A stretch of DNA of 58,342 bases, taken from sequence record PZ445426.1; one strand, 5' to 3'. Below are positions 1,572 through 50,112 of the stretch, in pieces (within the stretch, counting starts at the first letter, position 1; each line of letters opens with the position of its first letter). Below the pieces are notes generated by a model. It worked only from the letters and a program-made list of their open reading frames with translations, searched no databases and had not been told where the DNA came from. A program made the translations under genes and the position numbers. This stretch comes from a phage.

Positions 1572-3068
1572 ATGGGTATTGATGCAACTCACCCGCTATA
1601 TGACAAGTGGAAGGACGCATGGGTTAAGTGCAACGACTGCTATGAGGGTGAAGATAAAATTAAGGAAGAAGGTGTTAAATATCTACCACCTTTAGCTTCC
1701 ATGCTTATTGATGGGATGAATAATCCTAATGATCTGGGCTTTCAACGTTGGCTCGCTTATCGTCTGCGTGCTAACTTCCCTGACGATTATTCAAGTGCTG
1801 TTACAAACAATTTAGGTCTGCTGCACCAGAAGCCGCCTACAATCCAGCTTCCTCCTGAAATGGAGTACATGCGGGAGCTGTGTACTGCGGACGGTGAAGA
1901 CATTATTGCTCTGCTACGTCGCATCAACGAAATGCAGTTAAAAAATGGACGTTTGGGCCTGCTGCTGGACTTGCCAAAAGGTGAGGATGTAAATAACAGA
2001 CCGTATATTAGCGTTTATGATGCTTTATCCATTATCAACTGGGATGATGGTAAAGATGAACTAGGTAATATCAACTTGAACATGGTTGTACTGGATGAAA
2101 GCGGTCCTGTACGTGTTAATCAGTTTGACTGGAAAGAAGAGAAGCGTTATCGGGTTCTGCAATTAGGTCCGATGGACACAGATGAAGTTGCAGGTGGTGC
2201 GGTTTACTCCCAGCATCTATTTATCAACAATACCAATTATGATGAAGGGCAAATGATTGCTCCTTATTATAAAGGTAATACGCTGGACGAAATACCTTTC
2301 CAGTTTGTTAATACAACAGATATTACACCAGCACCGGAAGCGCCTCCATTGTTGGGGCTAGCTAACATCTGCTTAAGCATGTACCGAAGTGACGCTGATT
2401 ACCGTCAAAGTCTGCATATGCAGGGTCAGGACACGTTAGTTGTTGTTGGTGGCTCGGGTGAGAATGGAGATAAAGCCCCTCAGCGCATCGGTCCTGGAGC
2501 GGTCATTAACGTTGCTCTTGGGGGTGACGCTAAATATGTAGGCGTTAGCGGCGATGGTTTGTCCGAGCAACGCCTTGCATTGGCAGCGGATAAGCAGGAA
2601 GCTCAGATTAAAGCTGGGCAGATGGTAAACAACACCAAGAGCACGCAGGAATCAGGCGAAGCTATGAAAACGCGTATTGCTGCGCGTACCGCTAGCCTGA
2701 TTCGAATTGCGTATACTGGTGCGGCAGGTTTGGAAAACTTGCTGAAGGTCTGCGCTAAATGGATGGGTGCTGATCCAGAGAAAGTTGTGGTTAAGCCTAA
2801 TCTTGAATTTACCAAGAGCATGTTTAACGGTCAGGACTTTGTTCAAATTATTACTGCACGCAACCTTAAGGCTCCGATCAGCTTGCAGTCTATTCATGGC
2901 TGGCTTGTTGATCAGGGCTTAACCACACTAAGCTTTGAAGAAGAAATGGCAATTCTTGAAGAGGAGCTTAAGAAGTGGCCTCTGCCTGATGATGCTAAAG
3001 CTGATTTAAACGCAGAGCAGCAAGTAAACAAAGATCCTAAGGAAGACGACGCTTCCGATAAAGAATAG
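1572..3068 (+). CDS. putative portal protein
   Basis: 498-aa ORF directly after terL; GGAGGG RBS; call by size and position. Confidence 0.55.
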   Translation: MGIDATHPLYDKWKDAWVKCNDCYEGEDKIKEEGVKYLPPLASMLIDGMNNPNDLGFQRWLAYRLRANFPDDYSSAVTNNLGLLHQKPPTIQLPPEMEYMRELCTADGEDIIALLRRINEMQLKNGRLGLLLDLPKGEDVNNRPYISVYDALSIINWDDGKDELGNINLNMVVLDESGPVRVNQFDWKEEKRYRVLQLGPMDTDEVAGGAVYSQHLFINNTNYDEGQMIAPYYKGNTLDEIPFQFVNTTDITPAPEAPPLLGLANICLSMYRSDADYRQSLHMQGQDTLVVVGGSGENGDKAPQRIGPGAVINVALGGDAKYVGVSGDGLSEQRLALAADKQEAQIKAGQMVNNTKSTQESGEAMKTRIAARTASLIRIAYTGAAGLENLLKVCAKWMGADPEKVVVKPNLEFTKSMFNGQDFVQIITARNLKAPISLQSIHGWLVDQGLTTLSFEEEMAILEEELKKWPLPDDAKADLNAEQQVNKDPKEDDASDKE

Positions 3069-3098
3069 TTGCAACTTGCAAGTTGATCGGTTTATATT
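3069..3098 (+). promoter_or_regulatory. candidate sigma70-like promoter (TTGCAA-18-TATATT) overlapping a perfect 14-bp palindrome CAACTTGCAAGTTG (3072..3085)
   Basis: hexamers and palindrome read directly; lies between portal stop and next gene. Confidence 0.3.
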
Positions 3099-3163
3099 AA
3101 CGAACACGGGGCTGGGACGGCTCAGCTCCAAAAACGTCACACGGGTGACAACGGAGATAAGAA

Positions 3164-45202: not shown

Positions 45203-45230
45203 AAAGGGCCGAAAGGCCCTTTATTTATTT
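45203..45230. terminator. bidirectional terminator (AAAGGGCC-gaaa-GGCCCTTT + T-rich)
   Basis: read directly between convergent genes 44974..45198 (+) and 45225..47561 (-). Confidence 0.6.
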
Positions 45231-47561
45231 GCTTAAGTCTTTGAAAACACTCTCAATTGACTCGTCTATATACCATCCCAACCCCCTGAAATTACGCTTC
45301 AATGCATCCTCACGCGTAACCGGAACAAGCGCGCCCATATCTACAAGTTGTTTGATAGTGAGGTCTGTTGCAGTACCTGCTCCCATCCTGTGATTCTTGA
45401 ATGCTGCTAGCCCGTAGGTTCTGCGTGTGATAGTTGCCTTCGGAATAATACCGTCAACGCGCAGCTCCTTACGATCACATGCAATTTTACCGCCAAGATA
45501 GTCTTTGCAGACCTGACAGATAGCCTTCACACGCGTTTCATCATCACCGCCAATAGTACCTTTTTCCCATGCGTTGATCATGATGTCCTGCCCATGCGTG
45601 ACAAAATCTACCGCCCATTGCATGTGATTGGGTTGAACGACAGGATTGATCCAGTTTTCCCCCACTGCTAACAGGGAGGCGAGACGCAGAGCTTTAAGGT
45701 GAGCACGGTTCCACGGCTGACGAATTGCTTCGTCTTTTGTTGCGTTAATGTGTTCATCGCACAACAAGTTAAACTCCCGCTCAATCCTTGCAGCTTCCGG
45801 GCTTAACTGGACGGTAACGGTCTGAAACTTTGCCATTGTCACTAACGTGTGGTTAACAAGATGACAGACCATGTCCTTTAATTGTTGGGGCATTGTAATT
45901 TCAGGATTCTCGTTTGCAGGAACACGATCCCCTTCATATTGCACAATGTGGAAACGGGACAAGAAACCGTCTTCCATCATTTCACGTGTTAACGCTTCAA
46001 AGAAGGTGTCTGGTGTTGTTTCGCCCAGCACGCTGAACGCCACCCCTTCCATCGTTTTGGTATTATTAGCCTTATCAGAATATCCGATACCGCCAACAAC
46101 ATCCATCGCACCAGATTTTTGATACACATCTGTGATAGTTTGCTTCAGGGTATAGTTTGCAGTGCCAGGTTGAGCCGTTGCCATACCTTTAATGGTTTTA
46201 CCAAACTCACCGTTAATATTCACAAACGAAGTGTGATCCGCAAAACTTTTACGCAAGGCAGGACCGGAAGCATAGTTAGTCATGTCTACAAATTCATGCA
46301 CTTGCGGTAATTGCTCCCCTACTTGCTTACAGATATAGCTGGGCCCAGCGTGAAGCATTTCTTTGCCCACACCTGATCGGGCAATGAGCACAAAGTAACC
46401 GTTCAACCCTGTGTTGGTGATAGTATTCCATACCTTACCGCACACACCAGACAGAAATGCTAACGATGCGGTGATTGCAATTTCTTTAACCGGACGTTGC
46501 GATGCTTTGTAGATGTACTTCGCAAGCTCCCCAGCAAGCCCCGGCGGCCACTCAATAGCGGTTGCATCAATAGACGTACTTTCTGCGACCACTATTTCAC
46601 CAGAAGGGCTAACTGTGGTTACAGGCATCTCTGTTACTTGCTGCATTGTGCTGTGTGCTGCTTGCATACGGGCAGCGTAATCCCGCGCCAGCGCCGCTAC
46701 GTTTTCCTGGGCAATGCGCTCACGCTCCATGCGACCTCGACACATACGCAAGCAACGGTCAATATGAACATTGTTCTTATTAGCCTTCTCACGTTTGCCC
46801 AGTGCACTGTAACGAAATAAACGGCGACATTGCTCATTACTTTCCGTGTAGAATGCATACATAGAAATAAGGGCAAGGTCTGCTTCAGACTGGGAGGGGA
46901 ATCCCATTTCAACCCATTCACCATTAAATAACCGCGCATACTTATCGCCGTTATCTGCTTCAAGTGCACGCTGGTGAATAGTTGCATCATCTTCTACCGG
47001 ATCTTTTTCTACCAGTTCAATTTCATATGTCTTGCGCTGAAGATCAATTTCATTCACAAGCATAGTAAGGTAATGATCACGTTCTGCAACTGGTTTGTTG
47101 TAGACGGGATTACCCGTGCAGATAATAAAACGCTCCTGACTATAAACCTCGACACCATCACGTCGACGACCTTTACCGATGTTACCTCTTAACCACAGGT
47201 GAACACCCAAGCCTGAGCGACTCACTTCGGTGTAAGTATCGAACGCAGTCATGATCTGTTCGAAGCGGCGCAACTGCTCCGGCGTCGTGTGCTTCTTGGG
47301 ATCAGGTTCATTGGTTGCATTCTTCACATCCAGGTCGATGCAGGTGAACGGGTCTTGTGCAGTAAGCACGAAGCCAATATAAGGTTTATTGAAATGAGCG
47401 GCGCAACCTTTGGCAGCTTCAAACGTCATAAGGATATCCGGATCGGTAACGTCCGCCGCCATCAAACGTCCGATATCGTTGTCCCATACAAGCGGCTTTT
47501 TATCCGCATCGGCCACCGCCCATTGTGGGAAAGCTTTAATTTCAGCGGGAAACAGTTCCAT
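45225..47561 (-). CDS. primase-polymerase (Prim-Pol, AEP superfamily) with C-terminal extension
   Basis: Prim-Pol motifs: CIDLDV (DxD), SRSGLGVHLWL (SGxGxH), ERFIICTGN; 778 aa. Confidence 0.65.
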   Translation of the reverse strand: MELFPAEIKAFPQWAVADADKKPLVWDNDIGRLMAADVTDPDILMTFEAAKGCAAHFNKPYIGFVLTAQDPFTCIDLDVKNATNEPDPKKHTTPEQLRRFEQIMTAFDTYTEVSRSGLGVHLWLRGNIGKGRRRDGVEVYSQERFIICTGNPVYNKPVAERDHYLTMLVNEIDLQRKTYEIELVEKDPVEDDATIHQRALEADNGDKYARLFNGEWVEMGFPSQSEADLALISMYAFYTESNEQCRRLFRYSALGKREKANKNNVHIDRCLRMCRGRMERERIAQENVAALARDYAARMQAAHSTMQQVTEMPVTTVSPSGEIVVAESTSIDATAIEWPPGLAGELAKYIYKASQRPVKEIAITASLAFLSGVCGKVWNTITNTGLNGYFVLIARSGVGKEMLHAGPSYICKQVGEQLPQVHEFVDMTNYASGPALRKSFADHTSFVNINGEFGKTIKGMATAQPGTANYTLKQTITDVYQKSGAMDVVGGIGYSDKANNTKTMEGVAFSVLGETTPDTFFEALTREMMEDGFLSRFHIVQYEGDRVPANENPEITMPQQLKDMVCHLVNHTLVTMAKFQTVTVQLSPEAARIEREFNLLCDEHINATKDEAIRQPWNRAHLKALRLASLLAVGENWINPVVQPNHMQWAVDFVTHGQDIMINAWEKGTIGGDDETRVKAICQVCKDYLGGKIACDRKELRVDGIIPKATITRRTYGLAAFKNHRMGAGTATDLTIKQLVDMGALVPVTREDALKRNFRGLGWYIDESIESVFKDLSK

Positions 47562-47842
47562 TATTTACCTTCGTTAGCAATCACTTTTAACAGGGATGTA
47601 ATCACATCCTTAACTTTATCAACAGTGCTGAAAGCTGTATCTAACGTGGCATAGGTGCCAATGTACTGATATTCATCCATGACTCTGATAAATGCGCGGT
47701 ATTGTGTATTTCCACCTTTTAATTCTGCCTCCTGATCCACAGGTTCAAAATAAGCGCATACATCCTCAAATTGTCCTTCTCCCAGCCATGGAGCAGGGAA
47801 TCGAATCATCTCTTTACCTATAAATGGAATTTTTCTAGCCAT
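47561..47842 (-). CDS. hypothetical protein
   Basis: ATG 47842 with GGAGG RBS; stop overlaps primase start. Confidence 0.4.
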   Translation of the reverse strand: MARKIPFIGKEMIRFPAPWLGEGQFEDVCAYFEPVDQEAELKGGNTQYRAFIRVMDEYQYIGTYATLDTAFSTVDKVKDVITSLLKVIANEGK

Positions 47843-48134
47843 AAATCTGTTTCCTCCGCCATTCTTCATATGCTGAATTATTTGCATCGTATACTTCGCA
47901 AGCGTCTTTCATGCTGTCATACAGTCCAAGGAAAGTTCGCCTTGTTTCTCCGCCTACGTCTACCCATGTTAATCGGGCGAGCCATTTACCCGTTTTGTGA
48001 TCGAAAGTAACGCCCTCACGCCCGCTTACATTTTCCCGCGGCACTCGGGGCTTTCGGCGTGCGAGCCCACGACCTTTGAAATTACTGCCCGGGACAGTCC
48101 TGCACTTACGACCCACGACCAACCTCCGGCACAA
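47835..48134 (-). CDS. AP2-like DNA-binding domain ORF (no ATG start; possibly fused to upstream HTH ORF)
   Basis: GVTFDHKTGKWLARL...LGLYDS resembles an AP2 domain; track start is TTG and overlaps the HTH ORF in another frame. Confidence 0.3.
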   Translation of the reverse strand: MCRRLVVGRKCRTVPGSNFKGRGLARRKPRVPRENVSGREGVTFDHKTGKWLARLTWVDVGGETRRTFLGLYDSMKDACEVYDANNSAYEEWRRKQIYG

Positions 48135-48321
48135 CCCGACCAGCGTGCAACATCAAGATAGGTTCTGCAACTTCGCGCACGTAAACGTAAACGTTAGCAA
48201 TCTTAACTTCGCCCGGCAGCTTACCGCGAAGCGAACATAATTTGCGACGGCTAAGACCGAAGCGGTTTTCAATTTCTGATGTGGTTATGTATTTAAGATC
48301 AAATTCTTTTTGATGGTCCAT
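48106..48321 (-). CDS. helix-turn-helix DNA-binding protein
   Basis: 71 aa; ITTSEIENRFGLSRRKL resembles an HTH; AGGAGG RBS. Confidence 0.45.
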   Translation of the reverse strand: MDHQKEFDLKYITTSEIENRFGLSRRKLCSLRGKLPGEVKIANVYVYVREVAEPILMLHAGRVVPEVGRGS

Positions 48322-49155
48322 ATCTACCTCCTAACAGCACTATACACAATACATAGTAAGACAGCCACAATTATTCCACACGAAGTTATGATGTGAGCGG
48401 ATTGTTAATATATAACCACATGTGATGGAAAGTTTTGGGTAGGAATAGTTGGTGCTCCACAGTTTGCACAATGTGACGGAAAGTTTTGTGAGTTTTGCGA
48501 AGTTTTGCGAAGTTTTGTGGTGCCACTGTTGCTAAAAACTTTAATAAAAACAATAAGTTGGTGCAGTAAGTTTTTGCGTTTTGGGGTAAAACGCATTTTT
48601 TACCCTAACACCCAAATCCCGACTGTTAGTAAAAAACGTATATAAATCAATAGGATAGATACTAAATGAATAGTGGATGGAATGGGTAGAAATCCAAATG
48701 ATGGAAGTGGAATAATTTATTCCTACTTGATAGAATAATGGAATCGGTACTCCAGAGCGCAAAAACCTAAAACTTTCAGTCAACAGACTAAAAACGGATA
48801 GAAACTAAAAGTTAATAAGTAATACCATAAATATATATAAAATAAGGATTTATTAGTAATGTATATAGTACCTATTGGTATTATTTGAATGTTTTTGGGT
48901 CACTGTTAAAAAGTCCCAAAACTCACAAAAAGTGAAAGAATACAATTCGTGACAGGATTGTTAATGAAATATGGTGTATGGATATACAGTATTATTCCAG
49001 ATTCCGGAATAATTGGAATAATGGAATAAATTATTGAACTATTGTAATCGGAAGGTATATCAAGCTATAATGCGCTTAATCGCGGGATATTGGAGGAGGA
49101 CTTTATTGCGCGGTTAACCGGACCAGTAGGAGGGCTGGCCCGGAGAAGTTAGAAT
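48322..49155. promoter_or_regulatory. 830-bp AT-rich non-coding region with iteron-like and inverted repeats (candidate replication origin / early control region)
   Basis: no credible ORF; multiple short direct and inverted repeats read directly. Confidence 0.45.
48427..48520. repeat. array of five (G)AAGTTTTG(C/T)G direct repeats
   Basis: GGAAAGTTTTGGG, GGAAAGTTTTGTG, AGTTTTGCG, AAGTTTTGCG, AAGTTTTGTGG read directly. Confidence 0.6.
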
Positions 49156-49332
49156 TTATTTGCGGACGAATACAGAGCCGACAAATAATGTTGACTGAGT
49201 AGCAGCTTGCTCGATTAATTCGCCAACAAGCTGGGACTGCGTCAGAGGTTTAAGGCCTTCTTTGGCGCGTGCTTCATTTACACGGCGCTGAAGGTCTTTT
49301 AGGTATTGAGTTGCGAAGCTGTCTAATTGCAT
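49156..49332 (-). CDS. small hypothetical protein (58 aa, below ORF-track cutoff)
   Basis: ATG with perfect AGGAG RBS; hand translation MQLDSFATQYLKDLQRRVNEARAKEGLKPLTQSQLVGELIEQAATQSTLFVGSVFVRK. Confidence 0.4.
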   Translation of the reverse strand: MQLDSFATQYLKDLQRRVNEARAKEGLKPLTQSQLVGELIEQAATQSTLFVGSVFVRK

Positions 49333-49378
49333 TTTCGTTACTCCTAGGGCTCCCGCAGAAGCCCGTTGGTTGATGTGG

Positions 49379-49513
49379 TTATAGAACGCGCCAGTTAGTT
49401 ATTAAACCTTGTGCGAGCATAAACTTGCCAGTTTGCTCCGCGTCGTAGAGGTTATCGAAAAGTTCTTCTACTTCCCAACCGCTACCGAAATATTTTATTT
49501 CTAAAGTGAACAT
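49379..49513 (-). CDS. small hypothetical protein (44 aa, below ORF-track cutoff)
   Basis: ATG with AGGAG RBS; hand translation MFTLEIKYFGSGWEVEELFDNLYDAEQTGKFMLAQGLITNWRVL. Confidence 0.35.
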   Translation of the reverse strand: MFTLEIKYFGSGWEVEELFDNLYDAEQTGKFMLAQGLITNWRVL

Positions 49514-49566: not shown

Positions 49567-50112
49567 TCAAGCATCTAAACCATTATACTTGCGCCAGGCG
49601 TAGAACTGAATGGCGACCGTTGTCCCGTTGTAAGAAGGCATTGCCGCTTTCATTTCTTTCAGCTCCGGCGTGCGGCCCAGTTCGGCTAAAAGTTTATCGC
49701 CCATTGCCCACACTTCGGCGGTTTTTCCTTTGAGAGGCTTGCGAGCGCCATTTTTGAAATCACAGCGAGCAGCTTTTGCGTGTTTCATATCTTTCTCTTC
49801 CTCCTGCTCCAGAGCTTCGAGGCAGCTTTTGACGATTTCCGGATTTACCATCGGGCGCAGTACCGAGACGCTGGCAGCTGGCGCGGCGGTCGGTGCCGGG
49901 ACTTTCTGCTCCGGCTGTTGCGCTTTTTTATAGTCGCGCAGTACCTGAAGCACTTCCTTCTCGACGATGTAAAAACCAATCTCATCCTGATGGATTAACT
50001 GCTCGTGTGCATCGCGTGCAACCTGGCCCCAGCGGGTCTTAAGGGCGCGGCGTGCATTCGTTTTCATGGTGTAACGCATTTTATCCTGTTCGCGGTGAGT
50101 TACTTTAGACAT
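49567..50112 (-). CDS. hypothetical protein
   Basis: 181-aa ORF near the start of the minus-strand early operon. Confidence 0.45.
   Translation of the reverse strand: MSKVTHREQDKMRYTMKTNARRALKTRWGQVARDAHEQLIHQDEIGFYIVEKEVLQVLRDYKKAQQPEQKVPAPTAAPAASVSVLRPMVNPEIVKSCLEALEQEEEKDMKHAKAARCDFKNGARKPLKGKTAEVWAMGDKLLAELGRTPELKEMKAAMPSYNGTTVAIQFYAWRKYNGLDA

Follow-up and report, generated by a model that had tools for sequence, protein, structure and literature searches.

A predicted winged-helix gene and a nuclease-free AP2-domain gene are very probably separate, overlapping genes in the replication module of a Seuratvirus coliphage

Comparison with described systems

HNH-AP2 homing endonucleases are composed of an HNH_3 domain and an AP2 domain (PHROG 99, 4578 and 3593). 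The CasPRs are phage AP2 proteins with a CapR domain that are nuclease-free and function as transcriptional silencers and anti-CRISPR repressors; they need the Cys-rich CapR domain, and occur in Bacillota prophages (bioRxiv 10.64898/2026.02.23.707548). Excisionase/MerR-like winged-helix proteins (HTH_17; Xis, BldC, Rpp), and adjacent genes with overlapping start and stop codons, as in translational coupling, are the other systems against which the locus described here can be set.

The DNA that was analysed, referred to as the window, is a stretch of 58,342 nucleotides (PZ445426.1) from a Seuratvirus (Queuovirinae) coliphage. The locus is 91–95% identical to Skure, GottfriedDienst (Bas21), RCIP0359, OddieOddie, ECP2304, KS_W4 and SLUR25/63, with about 94% identity for Skure and GottfriedDienst. 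On the minus strand, genes for a small predicted winged-helix protein, an AP2 protein, a further small protein and a primase/helicase follow each other in that order. The gene model that we propose for the window (HTH gene 48321..48106, AP2 gene 48116..47835 from GTG, gene 3 47842..47561, and primase 47561..45225) comprises the following features:

48106..48321, minus strand: gene 1, 71-aa predicted winged-helix protein (excisionase/MerR-like, HTH_17-like) that matches phrog_11967; ATG at 48321, TAA at 48108..48106
48123..48127, minus strand: putative Shine-Dalgarno sequence GGAGG for the AP2 gene, inside the 3' end of gene 1 and 6 nt before the GTG
48106..48116, minus strand: 11-nt overlap GTGGGTCGTAA, from the GTG at 48116..48114 (start of gene 2) through the TAA at 48108..48106 (stop of gene 1)
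47835..48116, minus strand: gene 2, 93-aa nuclease-free AP2-domain protein; GTG at 48116, TAG at 47837..47835
48021..48116, minus strand: residues 1–32 of gene 2, basic arm, predicted to be disordered (pLDDT <50)
47838..48020, minus strand: residues 33–93 of gene 2, predicted AP2 fold (AF2 model and Foldseek)
47561..47842, minus strand: gene 3, 93-aa protein; ATG at 47842, a start homologous to that annotated in relatives
45225..47561, minus strand: gene 4, 778-aa primase/helicase (phrog_3022 and Pfam matches), the last of the four-gene block

As for the HNH-AP2 homing endonucleases, the gene 2 protein has an AP2 domain preceded by a basic linker, and both parts are homologous to their counterparts in these enzymes. 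Genes of the same type are found at the position between the HTH gene and the primase gene in relatives, i.e., a 207-aa gene in yong3 and a 174-aa HNH_3+AP2 gene in ECP2304, and gene 2 shows the sporadic distribution at a fixed site that is typical of such elements. Unlike the homing endonucleases, gene 2 lacks an HNH domain, an HNH catalytic motif or any other nuclease domain, for which its 93 residues leave no room, and the protein therefore cannot cleave DNA by the HNH mechanism. In analogy to the CasPRs, gene 2 encodes a nuclease-free phage AP2 protein that may be expected to act through sequence-specific DNA binding. The likeness is one of analogy only, as the CapR zinc-finger-like domain with its conserved Cys cluster beside AP2 is absent from gene 2, which has two Cys residues (C5 and C73) and no second folded domain, and as it derives from a lytic coliphage.

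The predicted topology of gene 1 fits the excisionase/MerR-like winged helices, and the best structural neighbours of its model are of this class, at weak Foldseek E-values. It differs from excisionase systems in having no integrase partner, and in being a core gene that adjoins the primase gene of lytic phages, which makes an excisionase role for gene 1 unlikely. The layout of an AlpA-like gene followed by a primase gene had raised the suspicion of a prophage or satellite. This possibility was rejected, because megablast found no match for the locus in any of 5,426 complete E. coli genomes.

The junctions of the block resemble known overlapping start/stop junctions with translational coupling, in that the start codon and Shine-Dalgarno sequence of gene 2 are placed inside the 3' end of the upstream gene, and successive genes overlap by 11, 8 and 1 nt. 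Nothing differs in kind; the start codon here is GTG rather than ATG, and coupling would be the corresponding interpretation.

The junction between gene 1 and gene 2

We consider it very probable, from the sequence comparisons given below, that genes 1 and 2 are each functional and independent members of a compact operon of the replication module, that gene 2 starts at a GTG codon within the end of the upstream gene, and that no frameshift is involved. The ORFs at 48321..48106 (minus strand, 71 aa, from ATG) and 48134..47835 (minus strand, 99 aa, from TTG) share 29 nt, and the AP2 ORF is shifted by +1 from the HTH frame. A first-pass annotation had pointed out this overlap between different frames, as well as the TTG start of the AP2 ORF and its lack of an early Met, and both observations are correct; the first in-frame ATG is codon 69 of the 99. 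The TTG at 48134 represents the furthest-upstream possible start under a mechanical ORF rule, and nothing more. The same annotation went on to suggest a single HTH-AP2 gene split by a frameshift (pseudogene, error or recoding), and this did not hold, since the homologs show two conserved genes with the same boundaries.

The sequence across the junction is ...GCC GGAGG TTGGTC GTG GGT CGT AAG..., where an in-frame GTG (48116..48114) follows GGAGG (48127..48123) after a 6-nt spacer, and with this start the overlap becomes 11 nt. The GGAGG is kept in seven of the eight sequences in an alignment of the locus (alignment A1), and KS_W4 has AGGAG at the equal distance from an ATG. The HTH gene tails of Seurat, CSP1C and KurtStettler also hold GGAGG before the start of the next gene. 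From this arrangement, we infer that the AP2 gene starts at GTG 48116. Initiation at this codon would use the GGAGG within the region that encodes the disordered tail of gene 1, with the start codon placed 11 nt inside gene 1. The next two junctions overlap as well, by 8 nt (ATGGCTAG) between the AP2 gene and gene 3, whose ATG at 47842 lies inside the end of the AP2 gene, and by 1 nt between gene 3 and the primase gene, where the gene 3 TAA and the primase ATG are joined as TAATG. The four genes may thus be translationally coupled on a single transcript.

Two separate genes would also result if the AP2 gene started further upstream, at TTG 48134 or TTG 48122, which would give a protein of 99 or 95 aa. 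Such a start is highly improbable. In its favour, the ORF can begin no earlier than TTG 48134, and the substitution at 48129 causes no replacement in the AP2 frame, but there is no good Shine-Dalgarno sequence before TTG 48134, and TTG 48122 directly abuts the GGAGG. Moreover, KS_W4 and the diverged metagenomic contig L017 have no homologous extension and carry an ATG at or downstream of the position equivalent to the GTG, and all annotators and metagenomic gene calls place the start of the AP2 gene at the GTG. The substitution at 48129 is linked to a second one at 48135, also before the GTG; both are silent in the AP2 frame, and both cause conservative replacements in the HTH tail (V/I and P/S). 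Two sites are too few to back an upstream start, and 48135 is located outside even the TTG-started ORF.

Overlapping genes and non-ATG starts are common in genomes of this type, and the pattern at the junction is ordinary. Of the 72 pairs of neighbouring CDS on the same strand in 49 kb of annotated Skure sequence, 26 overlap, by 1, 4, 8, 10, 11, 14 or 20 nt, and 6 of 78 CDS begin with a non-ATG codon (GTG, TTG or CTG). The overlapping pair with a GTG start is not new either, as it is already annotated in this way in public relatives, and the Skure record carries the remark “alternative start codon Val: GTG”.

Conservation of the two genes in related phages

The same two genes with the 11-nt overlap are present in nine related phage records. 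In seven of these (Skure, GottfriedDienst, RCIP0359, ECP2304, SLUR25, KS_W4 and OddieOddie), the same two CDS are annotated with the same boundaries, as a CDS of 201–216 nt, an 11-nt overlap, and a CDS of 282–288 nt. PLYYY01 and SLUR63 have the 11-nt overlap too, according to tblastn coordinates. Within alignment A1, the junction is free of indels in seven of the eight sequences, and GGTCGTAA is identical across all eight; columns 216–225 are invariant in 8/8, while at column 215 the G of the other seven is replaced in KS_W4 by an A, which yields an ATG. The HTH C-terminus of KS_W4 is unrelated to that of the others and 15 nt shorter, and the ATG is placed exactly at the GTG position of the other sequences. 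In L017, the AP2 protein is 76% identical in amino-acid sequence to that of the window, and is encoded in a block composed of a 69-aa HTH gene, an ATGA overlap, an 80-aa AP2 gene with an ATG start, a 74-aa gene, and the primase gene. The L017 protein has a shorter N-terminal arm, with the sequence MIRARKRKPRV....

Selection was evaluated from Nei-Gojobori counts summed across all pairs of the eight sequences. For the HTH gene, pS is 0.176 and pN 0.018, i.e., a pN/pS of 0.10 in its own frame and 1.8–2.5 in the other two frames. The AP2 gene, counted from the GTG (second codon onward), has a pS of 0.25 and a pN of 0.011, corresponding to a pN/pS of 0.044, compared with 3.6–3.8 in the other two frames. 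Both genes are under strong purifying selection, each in its own frame, and the frame under selection changes sharply from HTH to AP2 at the junction. Six of the eight variable sites from 48178 to 48139 are at third positions of the HTH frame and synonymous in that frame. From 48102 on, all but one of 19 variable sites are silent when read in the AP2 frame, and 17 of these 18 fall on third codon positions. The pattern extends through the N-terminal arm (48102..48033), with 15/16 variable sites synonymous in this frame.

These observations bear directly on the idea of one ancestral HTH-AP2 gene broken in two by a 1-nt indel, be it a pseudogene or the result of a sequencing or assembly error. 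Overlap of the ORFs in different frames, the lack of an early ATG in the second, and the nature of HTH and AP2 as DNA-binding modules are all compatible with such an origin, as is a resemblance in the longer gene 2 (147–151 aa) of the clade formed by STP-SP5 and contigs L018–L021, where the N-terminal part gives a very weak match to the HTH profile (hhalign probability 11.6%) and no match in Pfam. Practically no credence can be given to a split gene, however, when nine independent phage genomes and metagenomic contigs have the same frames and no indel, when purifying selection is strong in both frames rather than relaxed (pN/pS 0.10 and 0.044), and when the AP2 gene has ATG starts in KS_W4 and L017. 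Furthermore, searches of protein clusters, of phage records (tblastn) and of a library of 1.8 billion proteins returned no homolog in which HTH and AP2 are fused in frame, and the HTH gene stands alone throughout the subfamily. Alignment with homologs, which the first-pass annotation had put forward as a check, thus gives two separate conserved genes in nine phage records and no indel, and this is the outcome that had been named there as contradicting a split gene.

A programmed +1 ribosomal frameshift close to the 3' end of the HTH gene, which would produce an HTH-AP2 fusion, possibly beside the separate products, has some features on its side. Both frames are open across 48152..48106, GGAGG precedes the HTH stop codon, and the two substitutions within this span cause no replacement in the AP2 frame. 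A conserved stop codon (TGA or TAA) at 48155..48153 closes the AP2 frame at its upstream end, and the HTH frame past its TAA has stop codons in some relatives. The stretch has, however, no visible known +1 slippery motif, the tail of the HTH protein is disordered and variable, and the sequence before the start codon is unrelated in KS_W4 and L017. The GGAGG is located 6 nt from the GTG or ATG, which is the spacing needed for initiation, so that the downstream frame has its own GGAGG-N6-GTG/ATG signal. In addition, the offset of gene 2 from gene 1 varies, with +1 for the window, STP-SP5 and L018 and −1 for L017 and yong3; a conserved direction of frameshifting is therefore absent and no single mechanism is conserved, which argues against recoding. 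On these grounds, frameshifting is hardly credible, and we maintain that the HTH and AP2 genes are separate. There is no case for listing the apparent anomaly any longer as a pseudogene, a candidate for recoding or an assembly error.

The predicted winged-helix protein encoded by gene 1

Homologs of the HTH gene are present in 60 phage records (tblastn), always as a small stand-alone gene, and in the protein database they form five clusters of 66–74 aa, all of which are close relatives and stand-alone. Directly upstream of the primase gene, with nothing between, HTH homologs of 65–80 aa are found in Seurat, CAjan, CSP1C, Vid5, NP1 and PSTCR4. As judged by sequence, gene 1 is placed right before the primase gene across Queuovirinae and related siphophages. 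An HTH gene followed by the primase gene is therefore the common state, and the AP2 gene is an accessory insertion.

The HTH protein of the window has no match in Pfam or NCBIfam, whereas 3/9 members of the gene 1 family match HTH_17 in Pfam, with a best E-value of 3.5e-5. A search with the family profile against PDB sequences gave insignificant matches to sigma-factor and S14 fragments only. The AF2 model of gene 1, built from a shallow alignment, has a pLDDT of 83.5 and a predicted β-α-α-β-β-α winged-helix topology, and residues ~60–71, which include the overlap with gene 2, are predicted to be disordered. The C-terminal tail is also variable among relatives. The Foldseek neighbours of the model include SoxR, BldC, MtaN, the RdfS, Tn916 and GIsul2 excisionases, and Rpp, all of them weak (E≥0.15). 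Given the HTH_17 matches within the family and the predicted winged-helix topology, the “HTH-like” label that was originally attached to this ORF appears reasonable.

The AP2 protein encoded by gene 2

The label “AP2-like” for the second ORF is borne out by several comparisons. Gene 2 matches Pfam PF00847 (AP2) with an E-value of 9.6e-5 and 23.0 bits, which is under the gathering cut-off of 33.3 bits, and the L017 homolog scores 23.6 bits. A phmmer search of the PDB identifies the AP2 domains of WRI1 (E=1.8e-4). In the AF2 model, residues 1–32 have pLDDT <50, and the following domain, with a pLDDT of ~87, is predicted to adopt an AP2 fold with a three-stranded antiparallel sheet (strands 36–39, 44–52 and 58–66) and a C-terminal helix (residues 69–92). 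The top Foldseek matches are 7wq5 (WRI1) and 1gcc (AtERF1), at a probability of 1.00 and with weak E-values, and the model superimposes on 1gcc with an rmsd of 2.2 Å over 51 residues. The N-terminal arm is rich in Arg and Lys, and resembles the linker before the AP2 domain in proteins of homing-endonuclease type.

Within the group of nine phage records, the gene 2 proteins are 97–98% identical in amino-acid sequence, and protein-database homologs form two clusters of stand-alone close relatives. When 1.8 billion representatives were searched exhaustively with phmmer, one close cluster and 94 remote matches were obtained. All ten of the remote matches that were sampled carry PF00847 at E≤0.001, eight of them above the gathering score, and six also contain HNH_3, and the remote relatives of gene 2 are HNH_3+AP2 or multi-AP2 proteins. 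As regards assignment to AP2/ERF, gene 2 thus shows the fold in its model and has bona fide AP2 relatives, with a score of its own below the 33.3-bit threshold. In PHROG, matches cover just the C-terminal AP2 part of HNH-endonuclease profiles (e.g., positions 208–255 of 383), and neither Pfam nor the AF2 model reveals HNH_3 or another nuclease domain in the gene 2 protein. The model and the profile matches taken together show a genuine AP2 fold with a predicted basic, disordered arm and no nuclease domain, and a protein of this type would be expected to bind DNA sequence-specifically.

The position between the HTH and primase genes, and the origin of gene 2

Of 60 related phage records, 9 have an AP2 gene, and in each of them it lies in the interval bounded by the HTH and primase genes; its distribution is sporadic, at a fixed site. 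No gene occupies this slot in Seurat, CAjan, CSP1C, Vid5, NP1 and PSTCR4, and other cargo is present there in yong3, STP-SP5 and KurtStettler. In Hafnia phage yong3, the slot contains a 207-aa protein annotated as “HNH homing endonuclease”, which is the sole non-trivial phage match of gene 2. Residues 133–194 of this protein align with residues 18–77 of the window protein at 42% identity over 67 columns (pairwise E=5e-10), and Pfam detects no HNH_3 domain in the yong3 protein. ECP2304 has an additional 174-aa HNH_3+AP2 gene, which has its insertion point at the beginning of the primase gene and duplicates the first 16 primase codons. In STP-SP5 and the L018–L021 contigs, the 147–151-aa gene 2 has an AP2-like C-terminus that ends in ...QYEEWRRK, as in the window protein. 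Judging by the genes found there in yong3, ECP2304, STP-SP5 and L018–L021, this slot of Queuovirinae genomes is a hot spot for endonuclease-like cargo of the AP2 type.

Gene 2 probably encodes a DNA-binding module that originated in a homing endonuclease and lacks the nuclease, where descent from such an enzyme is based on one alignment at 42% identity and the shared position. Its ancestor would then be a homing endonuclease of the HNH-AP2 type that invaded the genome between the HTH and primase genes, and of which gene 2 represents the DNA-binding half. The first-pass annotation had offered an HNH-endonuclease remnant as an alternative to a split gene. As a statement of origin this agrees with the homology of gene 2 to the linker and AP2 part of such enzymes and with the yong3 protein in the same slot, but as a statement of decay it fails, as the gene is intact, conserved and under purifying selection.

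A non-functional, decaying fragment of a homing endonuclease is accordingly an exceedingly improbable description of the AP2 ORF. It would fit a linker and AP2 domain that stand alone with no HNH domain, the occupation of this slot in yong3 by a protein that resembles homing endonucleases, and the lack of an AP2 gene in many Seuratviruses. It does not fit a pN/pS of 0.044 with a pS of 0.25 among eight sequences, nor the intact frame, start codon, Shine-Dalgarno sequence and stop codon in all carriers, nor the persistence of the gene in the diverged L017 lineage. Gene 2 would rather be a functional gene, retained by purifying selection as a sequence-specific DNA-binding protein, for which the replication or regulatory DNA of the phage itself and the homing site of related endonucleases are candidate targets.

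A tentative extension of this proposal, possible rather than likely, is that gene 2 is a domesticated homing-endonuclease module that has lost its nuclease and been kept because binding to its site is useful in itself, either in control of the replication operon or the region 48322..49155, or by occupation of a homing site. If true, occupation of a homing site at the HTH/primase junction could block the endonucleases of co-infecting relatives or repress their primase. One lineage that keeps only the DNA-binding half, under strong selection, would offer a small and tractable case for nuclease-free endonuclease derivatives in lytic phages.

Other features of the block

Gene 4 is assigned as primase/helicase by matches to phrog_3022 (E=4.8e-247) and to Pfam DUF3987 and NrS-1 polymerase HBD, and gene 3 has no significant family match in Pfam, NCBIfam or PHROG searches. 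Literature on Seuratvirus and primase yielded nothing on the genes of this block. No family was found in an Rfam scan of 47500..49400, and scans for promoters and terminators gave counts not above those for shuffled sequence. In Seurat, KurtStettler, CSP1C and NP1, a gene of 210–260 aa is located at the position of the non-coding region 48322..49155, where tblastn detected no decayed copy of this gene in the window. This region of 830 bp, just upstream of the block, is unusually conserved, and gene 3 occurs as three allelic types among the relatives.

Gene 3 and the slot between the HTH gene and the primase gene

Immediately downstream of the AP2 gene lies a third small reading frame:

47561..47842, minus strand, gene 3, 93 aa, ATG at 47842

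The longest possible ORF for gene 3, opening at ATG 47887, is misleading, because the start used in the relatives is the ATG homologous to 47842. Family searches with the 93-residue protein returned no match. Among the related phages gene 3 occurs as three unrelated alleles, represented by Skure, by RCIP0359 and KS_W4, and by SLUR25, KurtStettler and the diverged metagenomic relative L017, respectively. The change from one allele to another falls exactly at the junction between the AP2 stop and the gene 3 start, and marks a recombination boundary at this point. All three alleles have the pattern Y.G.[FY].[ST]...A in common, which, judged from the sequence, is reminiscent of the AP2 strand-helix junction.

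Other occupants of the slot are found in related phages (locus coordinates):

L004 (Escherichia phage ECP2304) 2614..3138, HNH_3+AP2 homing endonuclease, 174 aa, directly before the primase gene
L011 (Hafnia phage yong3) 2105..2728, protein annotated as "HNH homing endonuclease", between the HTH gene and the primase gene
L007 (Salmonella phage STP-SP5) 1858..2313, longer gene 2
L018 (contig of the STP-SP5 clade) 2706..3149, longer gene 2

Residues 1-16 of the ECP2304 endonuclease (MELFPAEIKAFPQWAV) duplicate the N-terminus of the primase, and this looks like a footprint left when the endonuclease gene inserted at the beginning of the primase gene. An HNH_3 domain was not detectable by family search in the yong3 protein, which may itself be a nuclease-dead derivative. 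In the STP-SP5/L018 clade, gene 2 encodes 147-151 aa, shares 20 nt with the HTH gene, and combines an AP2-like C-terminus with an additional N-terminal domain. This extra part can be aligned in register to the profile of the HTH family, albeit weakly (hhalign probability 11.6%), so that gene 2 of this clade is a possible wHTH-AP2 fusion.

The region upstream of the HTH gene

Here the window contains an extended non-coding stretch:

48322..49155, ORF-poor gap, ~830 bp

Identity of the gap to its counterparts is 97-98% for Skure, RCIP0359 and KS_W4, while the flanking coding DNA is less conserved (91-94%); for the STP-SP5-like contigs the gap still reaches 84-86%. It carries short repeats in both orientations, namely GGAATAAT (five copies) and CAAAACT (six copies), as well as two copies of CAAAACTTTCC[AG]TCACAT with further copies inverted. 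An Rfam scan covering the gap gave no match. Other Queuovirinae have a gene for a 210-260-aa protein at this position, and a decayed version of it was ruled out, as tblastn found nothing. The gap may be an origin or a region with a regulatory role.

Beyond the gap lies a further reading frame:

49567..50112, minus strand, 181-aa ORF matching phrog_22313 (E=2.8e-120)

The last 70 residues of this protein also match several other PHROGs and, weakly, the Pfam "Homing endonuclease associated repeat" (E=0.036).
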